Virus record (IMG/VR): IMGVR_UViG_647533160_000003
Source of the DNA: a virus
Lineage: Duplodnaviria > Heunggongvirae > Uroviricota > Caudoviricetes
Length of the DNA stretch: 64,000 bases
Direction: 5' to 3' (one strand)
In this document: piece after piece, positions 2,754 through 14,403 of the stretch
Position numbering within the stretch: position 1 is the first letter of the stretch
How the letters are laid out: each line of letters opens with the position of its first letter
Program-made: the position numbers and the translations under genes
The notes under the pieces: model-generated
The model's input: the letters and a program-made list of their open reading frames with translations, nothing else
Told to the model about the DNA's origin: nothing
Databases searched by the model: none

Positions 2754-3854
2754 TCACACTGCGCGGAATGCGATCTCGCCAGGTATTACTTCGCCTTGCC
2801 AATACATTTGGGCAGCAACGCGATCTGCGAGGTCACGATAAATAGCCGTAAATTCGCTATCTGGACGACTAATAACGGTTGGTGTTCCGTTATCCAGATC
2901 TTCACGAAGAGAGATATGAAGTGGCATTTGGCCTAACAACTGCGTGTTGTATTTCTCGGCCAGTTTCTGTGCGCCACCGGTGCCAAAAATTGGCTCGTGA
3001 TGACCGCAGTTACTGCAAATATGCACACTCATGTTTTCGACGATACCCAGTACCGGCACTTCGACTTTTTCGAACATCACAATGCCTTTCTTCGCATCGA
3101 TCAGCGCGATGTCTTGCGGCGTAGTTACCACAACCGCACCAGTTACAGGAATGTTCTGCGCCAGCGTCAATTGAATATCACCAGTGCCCGGCGGCATATC
3201 GAGAACGAGATAGTCCAGATCAGGCCACAGTGTTTCCTGCAACATCTGCATCAGCGCCTTGCTGGCCATCGGTCCACGCCACACCATTGCATTGTCGTCG
3301 GTGACCAGATAACCAATAGAGTTGGTTGCCAGGCCATGAGACATAATCGGTGCCATGTGAGTACCGTCCGGTGAGGTTGGACGTTGGTTTTCCGCGCCCA
3401 GCATGGTTGGAATTGATGGACCGTAGATATCGGCATCCAAAATACCAACTTTCGCACCTTCAGCAGCCAACGCCAGTGCCAAGTTTACTGCTGTGGACGA
3501 TTTGCCTACACCGCCCTTGCCTGAGCTTACGGCGATAATATTCTTAACGCCATTAATGCCTGGTTGGTTTTTGACGCGCTTAAGCGTGGCAATGTTGTAC
3601 GACAGCTTCCAGTCAATAGCCTTTGCGCCAGTGATACGGAGCAGATCACCACTACATTGCTCTTTCAGGTCTTCAAAAGGCTTATTCCACACGAAAGGCA
3701 TGATTAGTTCGACATGCAGTGTGTCATCCATCAACGCAACATGGTGTAACGCTTTAAGCGTAGTCAGGTTGTGTTTCAGGGTTGGGTGCTGAAAATTAGC
3801 CAGCGTACCGGCTACCATTGCTCTCAGGGCATCCGGCGATTTGGACTCGCTCAT
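2754..3854 (-). CDS. apbC: Fe-S cluster carrier P-loop ATPase ApbC/Mrp
   Basis: 366-aa ORF; deviant Walker A 'SGKGGVGKS', conserved CxxC 'CSNCGHH', overall ApbC/Mrp family pattern; divergent from metG as in enterobacterial genomes. Confidence 0.9.
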   Translation of the reverse strand: MSESKSPDALRAMVAGTLANFQHPTLKHNLTTLKALHHVALMDDTLHVELIMPFVWNKPFEDLKEQCSGDLLRITGAKAIDWKLSYNIATLKRVKNQPGINGVKNIIAVSSGKGGVGKSSTAVNLALALAAEGAKVGILDADIYGPSIPTMLGAENQRPTSPDGTHMAPIMSHGLATNSIGYLVTDDNAMVWRGPMASKALMQMLQETLWPDLDYLVLDMPPGTGDIQLTLAQNIPVTGAVVVTTPQDIALIDAKKGIVMFEKVEVPVLGIVENMSVHICSNCGHHEPIFGTGGAQKLAEKYNTQLLGQMPLHISLREDLDNGTPTVISRPDSEFTAIYRDLADRVAAQMYWQGEVIPGEIAFRAV

Positions 3855-4011
3855 CCCGTCTCCTTTATTTTAATTTGCGCAATTGTCGCCTTGTAGTGTA
3901 CTCCAGCTACGACATTTAATCATTTATGAGAAATGCTGTTATCACATGGCAGACATAAGGCCATTTTGTTACTATCAAGCCCCTTTTCACTACAAAGAAG
4001 TAATGCCTACT

Positions 4012-7000
4012 ATGACCCAAGTCGCGAAGAAAATTCTGGTGACGTGCGCGCTGCCGTACGCTAACGGCTCAATCCACCTCGGCCATATGCTGGAGCACAT
4101 CCAGGCTGATGTCTGGGTTCGTTACCAGCGAATGCGCGGCCACGAGGTTAATTTCATCTGTGCCGACGATGCCCACGGTACGCCGATCATGCTGAAAGCA
4201 CAGCAGCTTGGTATCACACCGGAGCAGATGATTGGCGAAATGAGTCAGGAACACCAGACTGATTTCGCAGGCTTTAACATCAGCTATGACAACTATCACT
4301 CGACGCACAGCGAAGAGAACCGCCAGCTGTCTGAGCTTATCTATACTCGCCTGAAAGAGAACGGTTTTATTAAAAACCGCACCATCTCTCAGCTGTACGA
4401 TCCGGAAAAAGGCATGTTCCTGCCGGATCGTTTTGTAAAAGGCACCTGCCCGAAATGTAAAGCACCTGATCAATATGGCGATAACTGTGAAGTCTGCGGC
4501 GCAACATATAGCCCGACTGAATTGATCGAACCGAAATCGGTGGTTTCTGGCGCTACGCCGGTAATGCGTGATTCTGAACACTTCTTCTTTGATCTGCCCT
4601 CTTTCAGCGAAATGTTGCAGGCATGGACCCGCAGCGGCGCGTTGCAGGAGCAGGTGGCAAACAAAATGCAGGAGTGGTTTGAATCTGGTCTGCAACAGTG
4701 GGATATCTCCCGCGACGCACCTTACTTCGGTTTTGAAATTCCGAACGCGCCGGGTAAATATTTCTACGTCTGGCTGGACGCACCGATTGGCTATATGGGC
4801 TCTTTCAAGAATCTGTGTGATAAGCGCGGCGACAGCGTAAGCTTCGATGAATACTGGAAGAAAGATTCCACCGCCGAGCTGTATCACTTCATCGGTAAAG
4901 ATATCGTTTACTTCCACAGCCTGTTCTGGCCAGCAATGCTGGAAGGCAGCAACTTCCGCAAGCCGACCAACCTGTTTGTTCACGGCTATGTGACAGTGAA
5001 CGGCGCGAAGATGTCCAAGTCTCGCGGCACCTTTATTAAAGCCAGCACCTGGCTGAATCATTTTGACGCCGACAGCCTGCGCTACTACTACACCGCCAAA
5101 CTGTCTTCGCGCATTGATGATATCGATCTCAACCTGGAGGATTTCGTTCAGCGCGTGAATGCCGATATTGTTAACAAAGTGGTTAACCTGGCCTCCCGTA
5201 ATGCAGGCTTTATCAACAAGCGTTTTGACGGCGTGCTGGCAAGCGAACTGGCTGACCCGCAACTGTACAAAACCTTTACTGATGCCGCTGAAGTGATTGG
5301 CGAAGCATGGGAAAGCCGCGAATTTGGTAAAGCTATCCGTGAAATCATGGCATTGGCTGACCTGGCTAACCGCTATGTCGATGAACAGGCTCCGTGGGTG
5401 GTGGCGAAGCAGGAAGGTCGCGATGCAGATCTGCAGGCGATTTGCTCTATGGGCATTAACCTGTTCCGCGTGCTGATGACGTACCTGAAACCGGTACTGC
5501 CAAAACTGACTGAACGTGCAGAGGCATTCCTCAATACGGAACTGACCTGGGATGGTATCCAGCAACCGCTGTTGGGCCATAAAGTGAATCCGTTCAAAGC
5601 TCTGTATAACCGTATCGATATGAAGCAGGTTGAAGCACTGGTGGAAGCGTCTAAAGAAGAAGTCAAAGCCGCTGCCGCACCGGTAACTGGCCCGCTGGCA
5701 GACGATCCGATTCAGGAAACCATCACCTTTGACGACTTCGCCAAAGTTGACCTGCGCGTGGCACTGATTGAAAACGCGGAGTTTGTCGAAGGNNNNNNNN
5801 NNNNNNNNNNNNNNNNNNNNNNNNNNNNNNNNNNNNNNNNNNNNNNNNNNNNNNNNNNNNNNNNNNNNNNNNNNNNNNNNNNNNNNNNNNNNNNNNNNNN
5901 NNNNNNNNNNNNNNNNNNNNNNNNNNNNNNNNNNNNNNNNNNNNNNNNNNNNNNNNNNNNNNNNNNNNNNNNNNNNNNNNNNNNNNNNNNNNNNNNNNNN
6001 NNNNNNNNNNNNNNNNNNNNNNNNNNNNNNNNNNNNNNNNNNNNNNNNNNNNNNNNNNNNNNNNNNNNNNNNNNNNNNNNNNNNNNNNNNNNNNNNNNNN
6101 NNNNNNNNNNNNNNNNNNNNNNNNNNNNNNNNNNNNNNNNNNNNNNNNNNNNNNNNNNNNNNNNNNNNNNNNNNNNNNNNNNNNNNNNNNNNNNNNNNNN
6201 NNNNNNNNNNNNNNNNNNNNNNNNNNNNNNNNNNNNNNNNNNNNNNNNNNNNNNNNNNNNNNNNNNNNNNNNNNNNNNNNNNNNNNNNNNNNNNNNNNNN
6301 NNNNNNNNNNNNNNNNNNNNNNNNNNNNNNNNNNNNNNNNNNNNNNNNNNNNNNNNNNNNNNNNNNNNNNNNNNNNNNNNNNNNNNNNNNNNNNNNNNNN
6401 NNNNNNNNNNNNNNNNNNNNNNNNNNNNNNNNNNNNNNNNNNNNNNNNNNNNNNNNNNNNNNNNNNNNNNNNNNNNNNNNNNNNNNNNNNNNNNNNNNNN
6501 NNNNNNNNNNNNNNNNNNNNNNNNNNNNNNNNNNNNNNNNNNNNNNNNNNNNNNNNNNNNNNNNNNNNNNNNNNNNNNNNNNNNNNNNNNNNNNNNNNNN
6601 NNNNNNNNNNNNNNNNNNNNNNNNNNNNNNNNNNNNNNNNNNNNNNNNNNNNNNNNNNNNNNNNNNNNNNNNNNNNNNNNNNNNNNNNNNNNNNNNNNNN
6701 NNNGCTGTTGGGCCATAAAAGTGAATCCGTTCAAAGCTCTGTATAACCGTATCGATATGAAGCAGGTTGAAGCACTGGTGGAAGCGTCTAAAGAAGAAGT
6801 CAAAGCCGCTGCCGCACCGGTAACTGGCCCGCTGGCAGACGATCCGATTCAGGAAACCATCACCTTTGACGACTTCGCCAAAGTTGACCTGCGCGTGGCA
6901 CTGATTGAAAACGCGGAGTTTGTCGAAGGTTCTGACAAACTGCTGCGCCTGACACTGGATCTCGGCGGAGAAAAACGTAATGTCTTCTCAGGCATTCGTT

Positions 7001-7182
7001 CCGCTTATCCAGATCCACAGGCACTGATTGGTCGTCACACCATTATGGTGGCTAACCTGGCTCCGCGTAAGATGCGCTTCGGTATCTCTGAAGGCATGGT
7101 GATGGCTGCTGGCCCCGGCGGGAAAGATATCTTCCTGTTAAGCCCGGATGCCGGTGCTAAACCTGGCCACCAGGTTAAGTAA
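4012..7182 (+). CDS. metG: Methionyl-tRNA synthetase MetG, interrupted by assembly gap (N-terminal catalytic part 4012-5792; C-terminal tRNA-binding part 6704-7182)
   Basis: ATG at 4012 ([29 protein letters not shown], class I HIGH motif), 'KMSKS' at ~5010; C-terminal tRNA-binding domain after gap; gap plus duplicated flank makes true length and frame uncertain. Confidence 0.85.
5568..5792. repeat. Left copy of ~225-bp direct duplication flanking the N-gap
   Basis: Sequence gctgttgggccataaagtgaatccg...gagtttgtcgaagg is repeated at 6704-6929 with one extra A (ataaaagtg). Confidence 0.95.
5793..6703. other. Assembly gap (911 N) inside metG
   Basis: Contiguous run of n characters. Confidence 1.
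6704..6929. repeat. Right copy of duplication flanking the N-gap (1-nt indel relative to left copy)
   Basis: Direct comparison with 5568-5792. Confidence 0.95.
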
Positions 7183-7679: not shown

Positions 7680-7865
7680 ATGCTTAAAGAAGACTCATAT
7701 CTACTAAAGGCGCTTGAAATGCGTGGCGTTGAACCTACAGTGAAAAACGCTCACGATATCTACCTTCAGTTTTCGACAGAGCTGAAACAGCTCATAAATA
7801 AATATGGAGTGAACGACTCCAGCGTCAAAGCCATGATAGATGATGAATTAGACCATCTCATCTAA
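7680..7865 (+). CDS. Hypothetical small protein (61 aa)
   Basis: ORF with RBS-like 'acggagaatttatg'; operon position after previous gene. Confidence 0.45.
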   Translation: MLKEDSYLLKALEMRGVEPTVKNAHDIYLQFSTELKQLINKYGVNDSSVKAMIDDELDHLI

Positions 7866-7959
7866 TCAAACCGTTGATAATGGCGGTCACAATTTGATTC
7901 TTTTCTATAAGAATCCGTTGATCGCCACTACTTCCCTTCCATACCCGCAATCACATCCT

Positions 7960-8760
7960 TAAATATCAATAATTTATAGTTGTTTATACAATCAAGAAAA
8001 CAACTGAATAACAGATCAACGAAACGTCAACGCTTTCACCTGATTTGGTCTAAAAAGTTGACGTTTTCACACATCACTTCTTATACCCGTAATCCCACGC
8101 AGCAGATAGCGCCACAGCGTCCAAATTTCACCACAGACGACTCAACACTACCAACAAAAACACACGCTCAAAATCGCTCCCGTTGCGTTACACAACCATA
8201 TAAACAACTTATTTCCAGGCATAACAAAACAACTAAATAACACACATGCCATTCCCAAAAACAACCAACCTCTTTATGGCAGGCTACCGAAAAGACCCAC
8301 CTCTTCTTCCCAGGCTACCGGACAACCAACCTAACTTTCACAGGCAATCCGAAAACATTCATACGCGCGATACTCACGACACGCCATTCCCCAAACAGCG
8401 AAGAAACACAGAACCACTGAACCCCCAACGAAGCCTGTAACCGCAAGGATTCTCTCAATCCCAAAAGACACGAAACAGAACAATCACGGGAAACGCCATT
8501 ACCCAATACACGAATAACTACAAAAGCCTTTCACGCACTCCAGACAAACACAATAACGAAAGGAATCGCCCACCTGCCATTACTCCATATACGGAGAAGA
8601 ACAATCACCAAAACGACGAGAACACCCCACAGAAGAACCACCGCAAAACGAACGAAACCATTTACACCGACAGAGAGAACAACACACCCAATTCACCAAC
8701 AGGAATAGTCGCCGTATAGAACGCTCTGGAAGGAGTGAGCATTAACGCCTATAGAGAGGT
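7960..8760 (+). other. Strand-asymmetric C+A-rich noncoding region with degenerate ~30-bp repeats
   Basis: Plus strand almost devoid of G and T over ~800 bp; repeated caggctaccg units near 8281-8342; ORFs here have non-protein-like composition. Confidence 0.6.
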
Positions 8761-8831
8761 TGAGACAGATAAAACACGAAGAAAACACAACATGTATAAC
8801 GAAGAAGCCAGGTATGTATAAGTGGGGAGGG

Positions 8832-8856
8832 AAGGAGGGGTGTCGCCTCCTTTTTC
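8832..8856 (+). terminator. Intrinsic terminator at end of CA-rich noncoding region
   Basis: aggagg-ggtgtcg-cctcct followed by TTTTT. Confidence 0.6.
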
Positions 8857-8939
8857 GTATTTATTCAACTCCTGATTTTATCCCCCGTAACACCCCTACG
8901 GTCAGCCTCCGGTCCATACAGGGAAAAGGCTGCATCCCG

Positions 8940-9055
8940 CTACAGAAACGGCTGGATTGCCTTCGGGGAACGGCTGGAGGTTTTCAGGGAAACGGTCGAG
9001 TTGCCTGTGTGGATTTCGGGAAAAGGTTCGATGCCGGTTCAGGAACGGTGGCGTA
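8940..9055. repeat. Iteron-like direct repeats GG(R)AACGG (5 copies, ~21-27 bp spacing)
   Basis: agaaacggctgga, gggaacggctgga, gggaaacggtcga, gggaaaaggttcga, aggaacggtggcg. Confidence 0.6.
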
Positions 9056-9387
9056 CCGGTATAGCGTGAGGGAGAGTTGCGGCTACCCACCTGTAATGTG
9101 CGGGAAGAAGAGAGGTGCTCACGTGCAGGCGGACTTACTTACCGCTGGATTCCCTCTGAATGCCCAGCTACAGCGTAATTGTGCCAGATAGCCAGCGGGT
9201 CACAATCGATTTCAGTAGGTTTTCGGGGAGAGGATTATTCTGCACACCAGCCACTTTCGGCCACTAAATCAGAATAATGTAAAAAGTGTACTCGGTACTG
9301 AACCTGAAAACTCACTGCTAAAACCACATTCACCGGAATAAAATCCTTTTTCGCTTATGTGTTATTACGATAATAACACCAATAAGA

Positions 9388-9400
9388 AAACATGTTGTTT
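9388..9400. promoter_or_regulatory. 13-bp palindrome family (site 3)
   Basis: aaacatgttgttt; preceded by cgataataacaccaataag. Confidence 0.55.
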
Positions 9401-9412
9401 AAGGATTGCTTT

Positions 9413-9496
9413 ATGTTTGCACATATCGACATCAACCAAATTAAGAAATTGACTCAAAAAGAGTCTGTGAGCTGGAAGGTTGGTCTTCCACTCTGA
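9413..9496 (+). CDS. Possible 27-aa leader peptide or small ORF downstream of conserved promoter/operator motif
   Basis: ATG 13 nt after palindrome 9388-9400; short; may instead be part of a frameshifted gene with 9511-9732. Confidence 0.25.
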   Translation: MFAHIDINQIKKLTQKESVSWKVGLPL

Positions 9497-9510
9497 TCAA
9501 TTCGCGGTGG

Positions 9511-9732
9511 GTGCTTGAGCTGATGACTCGTGATGATGCACCTGCTTTGATGATTTGCGACATGGGTGAAGATGCTGACTTTATGGATATGAGCGAATTT
9601 TGTGTGGACACATACAACCGCAGCCAGAAGTACTACTTCACATGCGATAGCGAGAATGACGTGATTTCTAAGGTCTATCTTCACCTTGTCCAGCATTGGG
9701 ACGTTCAGGAGTTTCTTGAAGTATTCGCGTAA
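9511..9732 (+). CDS. Hypothetical acidic small protein
   Basis: 73-aa ORF (GTG start in track; ATG at 9523). Confidence 0.45.
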   Translation: MLELMTRDDAPALMICDMGEDADFMDMSEFCVDTYNRSQKYYFTCDSENDVISKVYLHLVQHWDVQEFLEVFA

Positions 9733-9861
9733 CCTCAACCAAAGCCAGCAATGCTGGCTTAACTTCTCTGTGGCCGCAGGGAAGAACCTGCATATCGCTC
9801 ATGCGCCTGATCAATATGCTTTGTAGCCGTTTTCTTACTGCTATTATTTACGCCATTGAGA

Positions 9862-9874
9862 AAACAAGTTGTTT
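9862..9874. promoter_or_regulatory. 13-bp palindrome family (site 4)
   Basis: aaacaagttgttt. Confidence 0.6.
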
Positions 9875-9885
9875 ACGGAGTTGTG

Positions 9886-10197
9886 ATGAAAAAATCATTG
9901 GTTCTTGGTCTGGACAAAGACCAGAAGCGAAAAGAGAAGCCTGCGCTGGTTGCTCAATTAACTTTGCTGGACATCGTTGCCAATGGAACCTCTATTCGTC
10001 TGTTCCGTGAAACAGCGGTGTCTTTCGATAAAAACACCTTTACTCGTTATGTAATGAATGTTCGTCGCCAGCGTGGAAAAGGCTGGGTGGCATTTCAAAG
10101 AATGTGGCCGGAACATCAGCTCGAACTGGCTTTGATGGAAGTTAACCGCGTGGCCCAGCAAGAAATTCAGAGAGCATCAGTGATGGCAATAGCCTGA
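9886..10197 (+). CDS. Hypothetical early protein
   Basis: ATG 9886 with ACGGAG RBS, 12 nt after palindrome 9862-9874; followed by terminator. Confidence 0.55.
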   Translation: MKKSLVLGLDKDQKRKEKPALVAQLTLLDIVANGTSIRLFRETAVSFDKNTFTRYVMNVRRQRGKGWVAFQRMWPEHQLELALMEVNRVAQQEIQRASVMAIA

Positions 10198-10231
10198 TAA
10201 TGTGCAAGTGGTAATTAGTCGACAGTACGAC

Positions 10232-10260
10232 AGCCCCGCCATCCTTACGGGGCTTTTTTG
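10232..10260 (+). terminator. Rho-independent terminator
   Basis: agccccgcc-atcctta-cggggct + TTTTTT. Confidence 0.8.
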
Positions 10261-10323
10261 TATTGTAAGTACATACCTACGGCTATAAAATATAAAAATA
10301 ACCAAGACACTACGGAGAGTGAA

Positions 10324-10719
10324 ATGACCGTTAAACGCGAAAAACTGACAGTTGATGTTTACTATGCCTCTGAAACCGCCGAAGGTAAGAATGTGGCAAA
10401 AATCACCGTTGTTACGTACAACACCGAAACTGGTGCCGAAGTCCAGGCCAGTACGATCGTGCGTAAAGGTGATGCCTCCGGCGGCGAGTACGCGACTCAA
10501 TACCAGTCTATTTTCGATGCAACTGACCCGCTGCTGCTGAAAATCGAGAACTACTTCCGCCAGGTTGATGAAGAGGTGTTTGAAACCATGATGAATATGG
10601 TTAACACCGTATTCGCCTCCAGCCTGAATACCAACACTACCTGGATTGGTCAGTACGGCCTGCGCATTACCTCCGGCATTCCTGCTGACACCTTAATTCC
10701 TGAAAGCGTATTCGCTTAA
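10324..10719 (+). CDS. Hypothetical protein
   Basis: ATG 10324 with GGAGAG RBS; 131-aa ORF. Confidence 0.55.
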   Translation: MTVKREKLTVDVYYASETAEGKNVAKITVVTYNTETGAEVQASTIVRKGDASGGEYATQYQSIFDATDPLLLKIENYFRQVDEEVFETMMNMVNTVFASSLNTNTTWIGQYGLRITSGIPADTLIPESVFA

Positions 10720-10814
10720 TCCTCTTTGAATGGCGCGTAAACCGCGCCATTTCCTATGCCCGATAACAATTTGTTTTCTGCCTTTATCTCGCTGCGATAA
10801 TTACACCAACAAGA

Positions 10815-10827
10815 AAACAACATGTTT
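10815..10827. promoter_or_regulatory. 13-bp palindrome family (site 5)
   Basis: aaacaacatgttt; preceded by cgataattacaccaacaag. Confidence 0.55.
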
Positions 10828-10840
10828 ACGCAGTGAGGAT

Positions 10841-11128
10841 ATGCTCATGACTGATTTCACCATTACCCCTAAAGCACAAAATGTATTTCTTGAATCATGG
10901 CTGGACTTGCCGGAAACAGAACAGCAAGAAATGGATCATGTGGATTATGACGAGCAGGTAAGCACGCGATTCTTCCACTTTGAGGGATGCGTTTACGACA
11001 TTGCCGACTTCATGCGAGATGACCGCTTCCCTGAATGGCACGCAAGCTATCCACTAAACGCCTTCGCCATGCTGATGATCCGTGTGGATGATTCAGGGGA
11101 TACCATCGACATCGGTCTGCTCCACTGA
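10841..11128 (+). CDS. Hypothetical acidic protein
   Basis: ATG shortly after palindrome 10815-10827; ORF in-frame with track ORF 10730. Confidence 0.5.
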   Translation: MLMTDFTITPKAQNVFLESWLDLPETEQQEMDHVDYDEQVSTRFFHFEGCVYDIADFMRDDRFPEWHASYPLNAFAMLMIRVDDSGDTIDIGLLH

Positions 11129-11299
11129 AGAATAAGGTCACCAATGCTGGTGGCCTTAAATGACCATCCTGTTTCCCTCAGGCTAAAAACACCAACCTCT
11201 TACCTCCAGGCAACCGACAAACCCACCTGTTCCCGTCCGGCCACCGCAACTTTCCACTTTGACGCCTTATTCGTACAACGATAATTAACACCAACAAGA

Positions 11300-11312
11300 A
11301 AACAATTTGTTA
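11300..11312. promoter_or_regulatory. 13-bp palindrome family (site 6)
   Basis: aaacaatttgtta; preceded by cgataattaacaccaacaag. Confidence 0.55.
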
Positions 11313-11332
11313 TTTACGATAAGGAATTAATC

Positions 11333-11815
11333 ATGAATTTTATCGCTACTGTAAACGCACCCGCACATGGCAATATCGCTGTAACGTTCTCTGACATTGA
11401 AAAACGAGTACTTGGTGCATGGCGCGACAATGAGACGGTAGAACTGTCAGCACAAGAAAAATGCATTATTGCACGCGACATCATTGGCAATCGTCGTTAC
11501 TCGCGGGTATTTGAGAAAGCGTATGTGGTAAATTCTGGATTCGGAACGTTCGTCTTTCCGGTGCGCTCCGGGCGATTCTGCCAGTCCAAGCTGATTGAGT
11601 TCGCTACGCAGATTTCTGTCTGGATTAAAACTCAATCGTCGTTCAAATTTTCCGACGATGAAGCAGTATCGCAGGGGATGCGGATCGCCAACAATGCAAT
11701 TAAATGCAAAAACATTACGTATACCGCTGGCGTTGATACATGGAAACTGTTTTGCGCTAACTTTATGCTGAATGTATACGCAAGCAACCGCATCCACATC
11801 CTTGATGGCGTGTAA
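11333..11815 (+). CDS. Hypothetical protein (160 aa)
   Basis: ATG 21 nt after palindrome 11300-11312, AAGGA RBS; followed by hairpin 11825-11846. Confidence 0.55.
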   Translation: MNFIATVNAPAHGNIAVTFSDIEKRVLGAWRDNETVELSAQEKCIIARDIIGNRRYSRVFEKAYVVNSGFGTFVFPVRSGRFCQSKLIEFATQISVWIKTQSSFKFSDDEAVSQGMRIANNAIKCKNITYTAGVDTWKLFCANFMLNVYASNRIHILDGV

Positions 11816-11824
11816 CTGAGAAGA

Positions 11825-11846
11825 GGGCCAGAAACGGCCCTTTCTC
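11825..11846 (+). terminator. Terminator hairpin after early gene cluster
   Basis: gggccagaaacggccc + TTTCTCT. Confidence 0.55.
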
Positions 11847-11869
11847 TATAGCCACCAGCTGCCGCAGGG

Positions 11870-11950
11870 AAATTTTCAGAAACGGCGAGGAACGTATTCA
11901 TGAGCCGACGGGAAACGGCTAGGATTTTTTCGGGAAACGGCTACATTTGC
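11870..11950. repeat. Second cluster of GGGAAACGGCT iteron-like repeats
   Basis: cagaaacggcgagg, gggaaacggctagg, gggaaacggctaca. Confidence 0.6.
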
Positions 11951-12067
11951 CTTTATGTAGAAAAACATCGGGAAGTTGGTTGAATCCAACCAGCGGTTGT
12001 CGGACAGGCGAGCGGGGAAATCATGATGACTTTCGTCGCCTGAGACATCCAGATTTCTTTCGTAGCG

Positions 12068-12109
12068 TAATCACATACGTGATTAAGTGGTGTGATTATG
12101 TGAAAAATC
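12068..12109. promoter_or_regulatory. Pair of inverted repeats with GTGATT/AATCAC half-sites (operator-like)
   Basis: aatcacatacgtgatt and gtgattatgtgaaaaatcac. Confidence 0.45.
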
Positions 12110-12429
12110 ACGCGCACATAATACGCGAGCGGATACGGAACAAAACAAAATGCCGATCCGCGCCGACAAATAAACGCGGATCACATAGCAAGACTAAAAG
12201 CCAATGATTAACTATGCGCTATAGCGCAATATAACGCGTTTTAAGCGCGTTAATGCGTTAAGTAATGGGTATGTACTGGCAAGGATATAAAAGCGCGTCT
12301 ATGGCGTTATTTTGGCGCTTATTGTTATGTTGTTGGAGTGAGTTAAAGACAATAAAAAACGCGCCAATGATGGCGCGTTATGGTGGAAGTATTGGAAACG
12401 AAAAAAGCGCCCATAGTGGGCGCTCGATT

Positions 12430-13881: not shown

Positions 13882-14403
13882 TTAAAACGGAAGGATTCGT
13901 TCAACCCAATCGAAGAAAATAAGTATTTTTCTACCGTCTTCCAACTTAAGTGTGACTAGACAGGCGTCAACGCCATCTGACTTTCCCTCAATTTCGCGAC
14001 CGTCTGCCATGTAGACCCTTATAGATTTGCCGTTTTGGTAAGCCTGACGACATATCTTAAAAAAGTCACGACGTGATGGCTGATTAACCATCTGTTCATT
14101 GTTTAGCGTTAGTCGACCTGTGAATGAAGTGTCAACCTCTTCTATGCCCGACTCAATTGTGCTAATGCGCTCAAGAGGGAGCCTTATACGATTTGTGTTG
14201 CTAAGCGGATCTGGTGTGAGGTTCAGCTTATTTCTTGCGCTCAATAGCCCGTAGACATACATGCAAAACACTTGGCCGTCTTCGAGAGTGACTCTTACAG
14301 GAAATTGAGCACTCCGCCAGAAGAGCAAGGTGCGTTCAGCATGTTCGTAGTTTCGCGGCCATACTTCAGCCGGTATGCCGTAGGTGATGTCCAATGTTCT
14401 CAT
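13882..14403 (-). CDS. Hypothetical protein (173 aa)
   Basis: Minus-strand ORF overlapping upstream gene by 4 nt (operon). Confidence 0.5.
   Translation of the reverse strand: MRTLDITYGIPAEVWPRNYEHAERTLLFWRSAQFPVRVTLEDGQVFCMYVYGLLSARNKLNLTPDPLSNTNRIRLPLERISTIESGIEEVDTSFTGRLTLNNEQMVNQPSRRDFFKICRQAYQNGKSIRVYMADGREIEGKSDGVDACLVTLKLEDGRKILIFFDWVERILPF

Follow-up and report, generated by a model that had tools for sequence, protein, structure and literature searches.

What function is carried by a C/A-rich stretch of DNA inside a 1.57-kb unannotated gap of an SSU5-type element, and is it used as RNA or as DNA? The window analysed here (the whole stretch of 64,000 nucleotides, 64 kb) is an SSU5-like phage-plasmid. 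Such elements, which carry resistance and other cargo, occur commonly in clinical Klebsiella, E. coli, Salmonella and Enterobacter, and to our knowledge the control of their lytic programme is almost entirely unexplored. The element encodes replication genes of its own (DnaE, helicase, primase, ligase and RNase HI, rnhA). The gap is kept in position, composition and sequence across elements from Escherichia, Salmonella, Klebsiella, Enterobacter, Citrobacter and Cronobacter. By BLAST, 838 plasmids of PLSDB contain the segment, as do 243 of the 5,426 complete E. coli genomes. The genes upstream of the gap differ between the SSU5, Klebsiella and E. coli elements, and the stretch is positioned at the junction of a variable cargo hot spot and the early genes, in the early, small-gene region that we take to be the setting of the unit. 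No description of the region was found in the literature searched (one 2026 preprint on an SSU5-type phage-plasmid was left out), and the C/A-rich stretch most likely represents an undescribed, non-coding transcription unit. Its core contains the following features:

8080-8745, plus strand: C/A-rich, non-coding, structure-poor core
8202-8232: copy of the early-gene palindrome, AAACAACTTATTT (AAACAAGTTGTTT in relatives), then half site AACAAAACAAC
8248-8610, plus strand: motif acGCCATTACcCaa.a..CggagAA.aaC, four copies at 8248, 8383, 8495 and 8576 (four to five in relatives)
8259-8350, plus strand: three tandem units of 30-31 nt, consensus ACCcACCTctT..tccCAGGCtACcGaaaA, ending CAGGCTACCG

The plus strand between 8080 and 8760 consists of 38.8% A, 32.2% C, 14.4% G and 14.7% T. 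The richest 600-nt window (8101-8700) has an A+C content of 0.733, about 7 SD above the mean of the 64-kb window (0.499, SD 0.032), and in 200-nt windows this is the sole stretch of the 64 kb where A+C exceeds 0.66; the strand-biased, C+A-rich region of the original prediction is real, and with 73% A+C it is unlike anything else in the 64 kb. The GC skew ranges from -0.35 to -0.51 and the AT skew from +0.24 to +0.60. Moreover, the C/G ratio of 2.6 over 600 nt is the maximum of the 64-kb window, and the median over 78-nt windows is 2.44 in the stretch vs 0.88 for the 64-kb window. The description of the plus strand as almost free of G and T was overstated, since G+T amounts to 29% (G 14%, T 15%). 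The bias sets in near 8080 and not at 7960, the segment 7960-8079 being instead A+T-rich (A 39%, T 31%) with regulatory-looking motifs. Among the non-redundant homologues of the stretch, 32 of 32 have an A+C content of 0.63-0.74. Chi is absent from the stretch, though enriched across the 64-kb window.

The stretch is non-coding. The longest plus-strand ORFs in the region are 86 and 64 aa, in agreement with the earlier statement that it lacks a credible ORF, and most indels that separate relatives have lengths not divisible by three. Within the longest frame that is open in any relative, the differences at the three codon positions number 10/12/17, 17/12/15 and 26/24/27, i.e. an excess at third positions is absent, and non-synonymous changes are 2- to 5-fold more numerous than synonymous ones. 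A protein-coding gene was ruled out on the basis of the frame-breaking indels, the lack of codon periodicity and the large surplus of non-synonymous changes; a conserved coding frame in homologous regions, which had been proposed as the observation that would speak against a non-coding function, was not found in the relatives. Long stop-free frames are present in some relatives (681 nt in L010 and 627 nt in L064), in frames that differ between clades, and stop triplets are rarer than in dinucleotide shuffles (z = -4.0 and -2.9); the long open frames are a side effect of the T-poor composition.

The difference between clades is 0.32-0.33 for the stretch vs 0.63-0.65 at four-fold sites of the neighbouring gene. 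Since this divergence is half that at the neighbour's four-fold sites, the sequence, and not the composition alone, is constrained, and we conclude from these alignments that the stretch is under purifying selection. It is conserved to the same degree as the neighbouring proteins, and the 1.57-kb gap as a whole shows dense conservation with a divergence of about 0.3. The comparison of relatives for composition versus sequence, suggested with the original prediction, therefore shows both to be conserved. In some plasmids an IS1 or IS3 is inserted at 8612-8623, and most of the stretch is absent from one contig, which argues that it is dispensable, at least for plasmid maintenance.

As RNA, the plus strand is nearly free of structure. 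The predicted RNA of 8100-8699 has a minimum free energy (MFE) of -67 kcal/mol vs -175 ± 22 kcal/mol for 600-nt tiles of the window, i.e. it folds about 5 SD worse than the other tiles, while the minus strand is ordinary (-155 kcal/mol). The MFE z-score of the plus-strand RNA against shuffles is -1.1, and hence there is no hidden structure. Almost no conserved structure was detected in relatives, the consensus energy of 8085-8250 being only -3.9 kcal/mol. In several clades, pairing between the C/T-rich tract at 7925-7940 and the G/A-rich tract at 8825-8840 was not above shuffles, and pairing of the stretch with the G-rich iteron region was within about 1-2 SD of shuffles. Rfam gave no match, neither at the gathering threshold for the whole window nor at E<=5 for 7800-9500, and no tRNA or tmRNA was found.

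The expression data come from one public RNA-seq set, limited to lysogens, for the phage-plasmid Cyrano of E. coli LF82, a 95%-identical element. For an ORF call that covers the first half of the stretch, there are zero reads from lysogens grown in LB, and in the other conditions its level does not exceed about 14 FPKM, so this is not an abundant RNA of the lysogen. The original prediction of a long, unstructured A/C-rich non-coding RNA accordingly holds with respect to coding status and to the nearly structure-free plus strand, but the region is silent in the lysogen RNA-seq; the suggested role as an RNA-chaperone sponge finds no backing, given that Hfq and CsrA motifs are not above shuffles, that there is no Rfam match and that lysogens are silent.

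The degenerate repeats of about 30 bp that had been noticed are genuine and correspond to the three units of 30-31 nt at 8259-8350. A second repeat family, GCCATT(A/C)C, had been missed; it has 11 matches in the 64-kb window vs 3.5 expected. The repeated motifs include GCCATTAC and CAGGCTACCG, and altogether the stretch carries seven to eight conserved motifs, four to five of the GCCAUUAC type and three of the CAGGCUACCG type. All are in one orientation, and the spacers in between are C/A-rich too. The GCCATT spacings vary by clade (135/112/81, 142/135/41/52 and 143/135/93) and are not in helical phase. The single orientation and the variable GCCATT spacing fit better with beads on a flexible strand than with a fixed nucleoprotein complex on DNA.

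To the left, the stretch is preceded by several promoter-like and operator-like sites:

7872-7960, plus strand: left conserved block (conservation 0.86-0.92), where homology begins despite differing upstream cargo
7874-7901, plus strand: promoter-like TTGATA (7874-7879; TTGACA in relatives), 16-nt spacer and GATTCT (7896-7901), in 7/7 clades in the conserved promoter scan
within 7872-7960: palindrome GATTCTT..AAGAATC
7925-7958: C/T-rich tract
7975-8010, plus strand: operator-like half sites GTTGTTT..AAGAAAACAAC
8003-8030, minus strand: promoter-like site (conserved promoter scan)
8022-8066: inverted repeat AAACGTCAACG / CGTTGACGTTT, the arms of which give back-to-back TTGAC -35 hexamers
8058-8087, plus strand: promoter-like TTGACG (8058-8063), 18-nt spacer and TATACC (8082-8087), conserved in 7/7 clades and also in a BLAST-derived alignment

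The half sites at 7975-8010 share their orientation with the motif found after the -10 of the early genes of this element. Relatives do not conserve the A+T-rich patch at 7961-8000. As RNA, the inverted repeat at 8022-8066 would form a hairpin followed by UUUU; the pairing is broken in a common E. coli subclade, and the hairpin is lost in L002, L014, L018, L026 and others. Judged from its position and conservation, the 8058-8087 site would place a transcription start at about 8093; it fails a strict consensus scan because TATACC lacks the final (-7) T. To the right, and around a related module (module B) that has its counterpart in the stretch and its surroundings (module A), the features are:

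8752-8800, plus strand: segment of 49 nt specific to the E. coli clade, with an operator-like copy AAGAAAACACAACATGT at 8779-8795
8829-8856, plus strand: G/A-rich hairpin and T-run, terminator-like on the plus strand only (terminator scan)
8915-9070, plus strand: six iteron-like repeats with a 22-bp period and the core G(G/A)AA(A/C)GG (3-6 copies in relatives)
9178-9205, minus strand: putative promoter, TTGTGA, 16-nt spacer and CACAAT, in 5/7 clades, directed leftward into the iterons and the C/A-rich stretch
9414-11815: early genes
11160-11250, plus strand: second set of three CAGGC units, in the untranslated gap after the stop codon at 11128
11259-11285, plus strand: promoter-like TTGACG (11259-11264) and GATAAT (11280-11285), before the gene 11333-11815
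11822-11945, plus strand: paralogue of 8829-9070, with a G-rich hairpin and TTTCTC after the gene 11333-11815, then GGGAAACGG iterons

The hairpin and T-run with which the region had been said to end were recovered at 8829-8856 (stem of 10 pairs, loop of 6-7, then TTTTT) and are strong in the clade of the window; in most other clades the hairpin is weaker and the U-run interrupted, with a consensus energy of only -6.8 kcal/mol and modest support from covariation. The C/A bias sets in a few bases after the 8058-8087 site and ends about 85 nt before the plus-strand hairpin. The core G(G/A)AA(A/C)GG of the iteron-like repeats was observed 6 times vs 0.2 expected, and these repeats differ from the RepA iterons TATGCTGYCAGCGGT, which are sited at repB 33 kb away. 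The shorter related stretch at 11140-11290 is likewise present, with an A+C content of 0.63 and three more copies of the 31-nt unit, located at about -60, -90 and -120 of the promoter-like site. Module B thereby has the order units, promoter, operator, 160-aa gene, G-rich hairpin and iterons, and its transcribed payload occupies the slot that is held by the C/A-rich stretch in module A; by analogy, this paralogous arrangement argues for a transcribed payload at the stretch as well. For the 160-aa protein, single-sequence structure prediction was uninformative (pLDDT 39), and an alignment-based model was good and had no structural match.

We tentatively favour, at somewhat less than even confidence, that the stretch specifies an early, non-coding RNA, not made in the lysogen, which functions in single-stranded form and as an obligatory substrate of Rho with sequence-specific sites. 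The 8058-8087 site, flanked by copies of the early-gene palindrome, would start a plus-strand RNA near 8093 that would extend for about 0.77 kb, as far as the hairpin and U-run at 8829-8856. The unit would be switched off in the lysogen, with which the early-gene palindromes inside and beside the stretch and the zero reads in LB-grown lysogens are consistent, and its RNA would stay single-stranded and free of ribosomes, displaying the seven to eight conserved motifs. Rho loads on C-rich, G-poor, unstructured and untranslated RNA, e.g. rutA/rutB of lambda tR1, and the predicted RNA has, as expected of a rut region, a C/G ratio above 1 over at least about 80 nt, little structure and no translation. 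An untranslated, unstructured RNA with a C/G ratio of about 2.5 is a textbook Rho substrate, so that Rho would have to be part of the mechanism: naked RNA would be loaded by Rho and transcription would stop inside the stretch. Because Rho loading needs composition only, Rho alone leaves the constraint at the sequence level unexplained. We postulate a sequence-specific partner (protein or RNA) that would bind the motifs and alter the outcome, or for which occupancy itself would be the purpose; no candidate for this partner was identified. The stretch would in either case be a long conditional attenuator or decoy.

Several observations count against this interpretation. The only expression data are lysogen RNA-seq, where the stretch is silent, the 8058-8087 promoter is weak by consensus, and the terminator-like element has an interrupted U-run in most clades and modest hairpin covariation. 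Promoter-like sites are also present on the minus strand (8003-8030 and 9178-9205), the repeat periods of 31 bp and 22 bp come near to an integral number of helical turns, a feature of DNA-binding arrays, and there exist plasmids in which the stretch is interrupted by IS1/IS3 or largely missing.

A serious rival to the RNA reading, possible though in our view doubtful, is an array of binding sites at the DNA level for phage proteins, which together with the 22-bp iterons would make up a lytic replication origin, a site resembling a centromere, or a hub for regulation or looping in the early region; a protein-binding array had also been offered in the original prediction. The dense conservation of the entire gap suits it, as do the significant iteron-like repeats with their 3-6 copies, typical of binding arrays, the unit spacings of 30-31 bp and 22 bp (about three and two helical turns), the regular placing of the module B units upstream of a promoter-like site, and the replication genes that the element encodes; we know of no lytic origin for this element, and the second iteron cluster brackets the early genes on their other side in a manner reminiscent of iteron-gene-iteron replicons. 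However, duplex sites do not need spacers that are C/A-rich on one strand, and we know of no origin with 0.7 kb of such strand asymmetry. The iterons are unlike those of RepA beside the distant repB, no DnaA box with <=1 mismatch was found, the A+T-rich patch is not conserved, GCCATT spacing is neither conserved nor in helical phase, none of the flanked genes was recognised as coding for an initiator-like protein, and the cumulative GC skew of the plasmid is monotonic without an origin signal. Rather improbable, in our judgement, is that a G/U-rich minus-strand RNA from 9178-9205 forms an R-loop or D-loop and primes DNA synthesis in the leftward direction, as happens in ColE1 or in the mitochondrial control region; the skew of A+C against G+T would in that case reflect either function or the deamination of an often single-stranded strand. 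The asymmetry does match the G+T-rich heavy and A+C-rich light strands of vertebrate mtDNA, the promoter-like site is conserved in 5/7 clades, the 8829-8856 hairpin is no terminator in that direction, the element carries rnhA, and the stretch is bounded by the inverted repeat 8022-8066 on the left and by iterons on the right. Nearest-neighbour energies are not discriminating and give no preference for a G/U-rich hybrid (hybrid minus duplex, +0.035 kcal/mol per nt for the minus-strand RNA and -0.044 for the plus-strand RNA, both within about 1.3 SD of the window). Given the purifying selection, mutation alone does not account for the skew, and both the orientation of the motifs and the paralogous module point to the plus strand.

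The RNA could alternatively act in trans. We regard as improbable a sponge that takes up Hfq, ProQ or CsrA, or host sRNAs that are G/U-rich, e.g. GcvB: repeated motifs on a long, single-stranded, C/A-rich RNA would suggest multivalent binding, the G/U-rich seed of GcvB targets C/A-rich elements and prophage-encoded anti-sRNAs exist, but in none of three clades were (ARN)4, AAYAAYAA, ANGGA and GGA enriched relative to dinucleotide shuffles, no family of the CsrB/RsmZ/CrcZ type or other was matched in Rfam, lysogens are silent, ProQ/FinO ligands are structured RNAs whereas the predicted RNA is unstructured, and no significant complementarity to any E. coli chromosome was found at BLAST sensitivity, which short seeds escape. 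Unlikely, yet less so than the sponge, is that the structure-free RNA of about 0.77 kb is made only at the lytic switch and serves in trans as a multivalent decoy, via its seven to eight motifs, for Rho and/or a sequence-specific RNA-binding factor of host or phage; if true, termination or RNA metabolism would be reprogrammed at the start of infection, and the RNA would be a counterpart of protein Rho inhibitors such as P4 Psu. Finally, a decaying former gene or neutral spacer with a composition due to historical accident is highly improbable and largely refuted by the comparison of relatives. The stop-free frames of 681 and 627 nt, the depletion of stop triplets and the rare variants with a missing or interrupted stretch are what it would lead one to expect; against it, codon periodicity is lacking, non-synonymous changes far exceed synonymous ones, the frames differ between clades, the divergence is half that of four-fold sites, A+C is held within its narrow range in all 32 non-redundant homologues, and discrete motifs are conserved.

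More specific identities were rejected as well. For a RepA-iteron plasmid origin the repeats are different, repB is 33 kb off, DnaA boxes are lacking and the A+T patch is unconserved. For an Hfq/Crc sponge, (ARN)n/AAYAAYAA occur 0-2 times vs 0.2-1.5 in shuffles in three clades, and for a CsrA/RsmA sponge, GGA occurs 6-11 times vs 6-8.5 expected, with no Rfam match. A type III toxin-antitoxin system was rejected on the grounds that the repeats are not near-identical and that the 160-aa protein has no ToxN/AbiQ/CptN-like sequence or fold, and mimicry of the FljA target on the grounds that the fliC-leader alignment scores were matched by 16-181 of 300 shuffled leaders. In this context, a 9-mer, ACCCAATAC, is shared with the fliC mRNA leader, a known FljA target, and the element itself has a related regulator:

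13882-14403: FljA-family regulator gene

Annotation pipelines have left this large element blank, and Rfam has no matching family. Should it prove to be a long leader or decoy under the control of Rho, it would provide a handle on the switch from lysogeny to lysis in the SSU5-like family and an extreme natural example of an RNA selected for having no structure; if it is a DNA element, it would be the best candidate so far for a cis site of these phages that has yet to be mapped, either a lytic origin or a regulatory hub.

Compared with known systems, the iterons of P1 (incC/incA) and F (incB/incC) resemble the 8915-9070 repeats, and not the C/A-rich stretch, in forming two clusters of variable copy number that bracket genes; the repeats here are unrelated to the element's RepA iterons and have no Rep-like gene between the clusters. 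The type III toxin-antitoxin arrays (ToxI, CptI) and phage pseudo-ToxI recall module B, where tandem units of about 31 nt precede the 160-aa gene, and the orphan array in module A; here, however, the units are only 65-77% alike and no terminator separates units and gene. With P1/P7 c4, P4 CI RNA and N15 CA RNA the stretch shares the character of a non-coding early or immunity leader with internal repeats and expected premature termination. At about 70-80 nt those RNAs are small; they have structure, undergo processing and pair with complementary repeats in their own leader, whereas the stretch shows no conserved internal complementarity beyond shuffles. The sponges CsrB/CsrC/RsmZ (for CsrA) and CrcZ (for Hfq/Crc) are, like the stretch, non-coding, with several short single-stranded motifs and a terminator at the end. 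The stretch differs in that its motifs are of the GCCAUUAC and CAGGCUACCG types, GGA/ARN not being enriched, and in being without presentation in hairpin loops, without an Rfam match and unexpressed in the lysogen. Rho terminators and leaders (rutA/rutB of lambda tR1; the rho, mgtA, corA and chiP leaders of enterobacteria) similarly have untranslated, unstructured, C-rich, G-poor RNA after a promoter, and lambda tR1 and tL1 are also found at the head of a phage early-gene block. Rho-controlled leaders run straight into a regulated ORF, whereas the stretch, for which Rho dependence is predicted from composition, ends in an intrinsic-type hairpin. Rho needs roughly 80 nt, and the C/G ratio of the stretch stays well above 1 for much longer than that; in contrast to known rut regions the stretch, at about 0.67 kb, is some five to eight times longer, is conserved in sequence too and carries two families of repeated motifs.

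On the plus strand, positions 8080-8760 hold 38.8% A, 32.2% C, 14.4% G and 14.7% T, and A+C reaches 0.733 in the best 600-nt window compared to 0.499 ± 0.032 over the whole window; in 200-nt windows, A+C exceeds 0.66 in this stretch alone within the window. The strand-biased C+A-rich stretch of the original prediction was thus confirmed, while its onset is at approximately 8080 and not at 7960, and "almost free of G and T" was an overstatement (G+T = 29%). The stretch is part of a 1.57-kb gap (7866-9440), which is blank in annotations or holds unconserved "hypothetical" ORFs. The anatomy of the gap was derived from an alignment of homologous loci from relatives together with the conservation profile.

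Features of the gap
7872-7960: start of homology, the same whatever the upstream cargo
7975-8090: operator-like half sites; also an inverted repeat whose arms supply back-to-back TTGAC hexamers
ending at 8087, plus strand: conserved promoter-like site (TTGACG, 18-nt spacer, TATACC)
8080-8745, plus strand: C/A-rich core
8202-8214: one copy, in the core, of the palindrome AAACAA-N1-2-TTGTTT
8259-8350: three 31-nt CAGGCTACCG units in the core
within the core: GCCATT(A/C)C-type motifs, four here and four to five in relatives, consensus acGCCATTACcCaa.a..CggagAA.aaC
8829-8856: G/A-rich hairpin with T-run
8915-9070: six 22-bp iteron-like repeats
9369-9400: promoter and palindrome of the next gene

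The ~30-nt repeats, the hairpin plus T-run and the related C/A-rich stretch at 11140-11290 are all present as originally described. A 49-nt segment (8752-8800), found in the E. coli clade only, carries an extra operator-like copy (AAGAAAACACAACATGT) just 5' of the terminator hairpin. In the window, a frameshift or a sequencing error breaks the first gene after the gap (9392-9732) into ORFs of 34 aa and 73 aa in different frames, where a related plasmid has a single ORF of 109 aa. The 61-aa protein encoded immediately before the gap (7680-7865) has sub-threshold similarity (Pfam E = 0.005, below the cut-off) to T7 gp5.9, a RecBCD inhibitor. The cargo farther upstream varies: E. coli has metG-apbC, Klebsiella has restriction and DUF262 genes, and SSU5 has yet other genes. 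In the window, metG (3883-7182) and the divergent apbC (2754-3854) are cargo, a cassette of chromosome type. A run of 911 N (5793-6703) interrupts metG, and at least 200 bp are directly duplicated on its two sides (5587.. = 6724..), so that approximately 70 residues appear twice in the ORF; this indicates masking or an effect of assembly.

Segment 7300-9400 matches plasmids of approximately 100-115 kb with 90-97% identity in 243 of 5,426 complete E. coli genomes, with no chromosomal match among these, and with 66-77% identity 838 PLSDB plasmids (Klebsiella, Escherichia, Enterobacter, Salmonella, Citrobacter and Cronobacter) and the phages SSU5, Cyrano and relatives. One related plasmid, pECOPRAWN_FPGL2, has genes for tail, capsid, portal and terminase, and encodes its own DnaE, helicase, primase, ligase and RNase HI as well as a RepB-family initiator. 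These matches and genes identify the window as an SSU5-type phage-plasmid. Its C/A-rich element is widespread, previously undescribed and open to direct tests.

The stretch is non-coding, as originally claimed. Most indels between clades are not multiples of three, and the open frame differs from clade to clade. Some relatives have long stop-free frames, e.g. 681 nt in L010, where differences are even across codon positions (10/12/17, 17/12/15 and 26/24/27) and non-synonymous to synonymous codon changes range from 24:11 to 93:18. We consequently reject a protein-coding function; the long open frames are a by-product of T-poor sequence. Comparison among relatives, suggested originally as a means to separate conservation of composition from that of sequence, revealed that both are kept. 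An A+C content of 0.63-0.74 is retained in all 32 non-redundant homologues, and in nearly all loci retrieved via a neighbouring gene the stretch sits 1.8-4.5 kb upstream of it. Between the window and the SSU5, Citrobacter, Enterobacter clade, 32-33% of aligned positions differ in the stretch, compared to 28-37% overall and 63-65% at four-fold degenerate sites in the neighbouring 103-aa gene. The stretch is thus constrained to the degree of a protein gene. This sequence-level constraint excludes a neutral spacer or purely mutational skew.

That the stretch is a payload transcribed from the plus strand is argued chiefly from a paralogous set, module B, around the 160-aa gene 11333-11815. Three further copies of the 31-nt unit form its C/A-rich patch (11160-11250), which lies in an untranslated gap 3' of a stop codon and 5' of promoter, palindrome and gene; downstream follow a G-rich hairpin with TTTCTC and then GGGAAACGG iterons (11822-11945), kept in relatives. 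The slot between promoter and hairpin thus holds a transcribed gene in module B and the C/A-rich stretch in module A, and the two iteron clusters (8915-9070 and 11822-11945) bracket the early small-gene block. Chi (GCTGGTGG) occurs 12 times in the window (9 on the plus strand) compared to 1.5 expected, once at 11146 where the second C/A-rich patch starts and once in opposite orientation at 11852, just past the module B terminator.

The plus-strand RNA 8100-8699 has a predicted MFE of -67 kcal/mol compared to -175 ± 22 for 600-nt window tiles and -155 for its minus strand; the full RNA (8090-8860) is no more structured than shuffles (z = -1.1), RNAalifold on relatives gave almost no conserved structure, and long-range pairings seen in the window did not outperform shuffles across clades. 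The window's highest C/G ratio is also here (2.6 over 600 nt; median 2.44 in 78-nt windows). Rho loads onto untranslated, unstructured, C-rich, G-poor RNA and must act on the stretch if it is transcribed. Because Rho requires composition only, yet the sequence is constrained and the one-strand motifs are discrete with clade-variable spacing (GCCATT: 32 observed, 0.7 expected, in 8 sequences), this points to a sequence-specific partner besides Rho. In Cyrano, a phage-plasmid of E. coli LF82 that is 95% identical here, RNA-seq has been re-analysed as log2(FPKM+5) (PMC9928086). CYRAN_103 (window ~7980-8336) stays at the floor of 2.32, equivalent to zero reads, in the two LB samples and does not exceed 4.27 in the others; values are 2.6-4.7 for CYRAN_104 (~8824-9228) and 5.6-9.2 for the upstream cargo gene CYRAN_102. 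In lysogens, the C/A-rich unit is off.

A long unstructured non-coding RNA, as originally proposed, is the best-supported reading, although it is unproven and we put it at somewhat short of an even chance. A serious rival is a DNA-level array acting as origin, centromere or looping hub: the iterons are real, bracket the early genes, vary in copy number and have periods close to whole helical turns, and we know of no lytic origin for SSU5-type phages, but duplex sites explain neither the one-strand C/A-richness of the spacers nor the variable motif spacing. Neither the stretch nor the 8915-9070 repeats are the plasmid-maintenance origin or its control iterons, which sit elsewhere; in a related plasmid (L012, 20043-21797) fifteen TATGCTGYCAGCGGT iterons flank a RepB-family initiator gene, and this plasmid-maintenance origin is 33 kb from the stretch. 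A minus-strand, R-loop-type reading is possible given a promoter-like site (9178-9205) directed leftward, but is not favoured by hybrid energies.

The element is dispensable for plasmid maintenance, because two E. coli plasmids carry independent insertions (IS1 in one, IS3 in the other) at most 10 bp apart at the 8612-8623 equivalent, and a viral contig (L139, 1900-3060) keeps just the last ~170 nt, fused to another gene, a terminator and a small ORF that has the usual palindrome, with hairpin and iterons intact. The paired insertions mark a hot spot for insertion or else reflect selection for disrupting the stretch. In L014 and L050, a foreign insertion starting TCAACGCCAAGAT(A/T)(G/T)TTGGCCGTTTTTCGCCATTTTTAATG entered the iteron region at different points (~8895 and ~9100 equivalents), replacing the iterons in L014.

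The palindrome AAACAA-N1-2-TTGTTT (often AAGAAAACAAnnTGTTT) occurs in at least 12 places in the window (7267, 7318, 8202, 9388, 9862, 10764, 10815, 11300, 21496, 21521, 52237 and 56264), with 27 strand-matches compared to 2.9 expected, usually between a GATAAT -10 and the RBS of small plus-strand genes, the terminase operon included. It is a putative genome-wide operator or 5'-UTR hairpin of a regulator and marks a regulon, of which the C/A-rich unit looks like a member. Other palindromes (TAATCAC-ATAC-GTGATTA, GTGATTATGTGAAAAATCAC and GCGCTATAGCGC-like) cluster at 12040-12260, in the gap that separates the early plus-strand genes from the regulatory genes on the minus strand; the cluster probably serves as control region for this divergent block.

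Among known systems, RNA families gave no match, the motif content argues against an Hfq, Crc or CsrA sponge, leaving the original chaperone-sponge idea unsupported, and a ToxI-like array was rejected, the 160-aa protein having a confident model without a ToxN-like or any other fold match. A fliC leader mimic was likewise rejected. A full-length FljA-family protein is encoded at 13882-14403 on the minus strand (PF03614, Pfam Flag1_repress, E = 2e-68; PHROG label "transcriptional repressor"); FljA proteins act post-transcriptionally on fliC mRNA (PMC2652032), and possible targets of this one are genes of the element itself or host flagellin.
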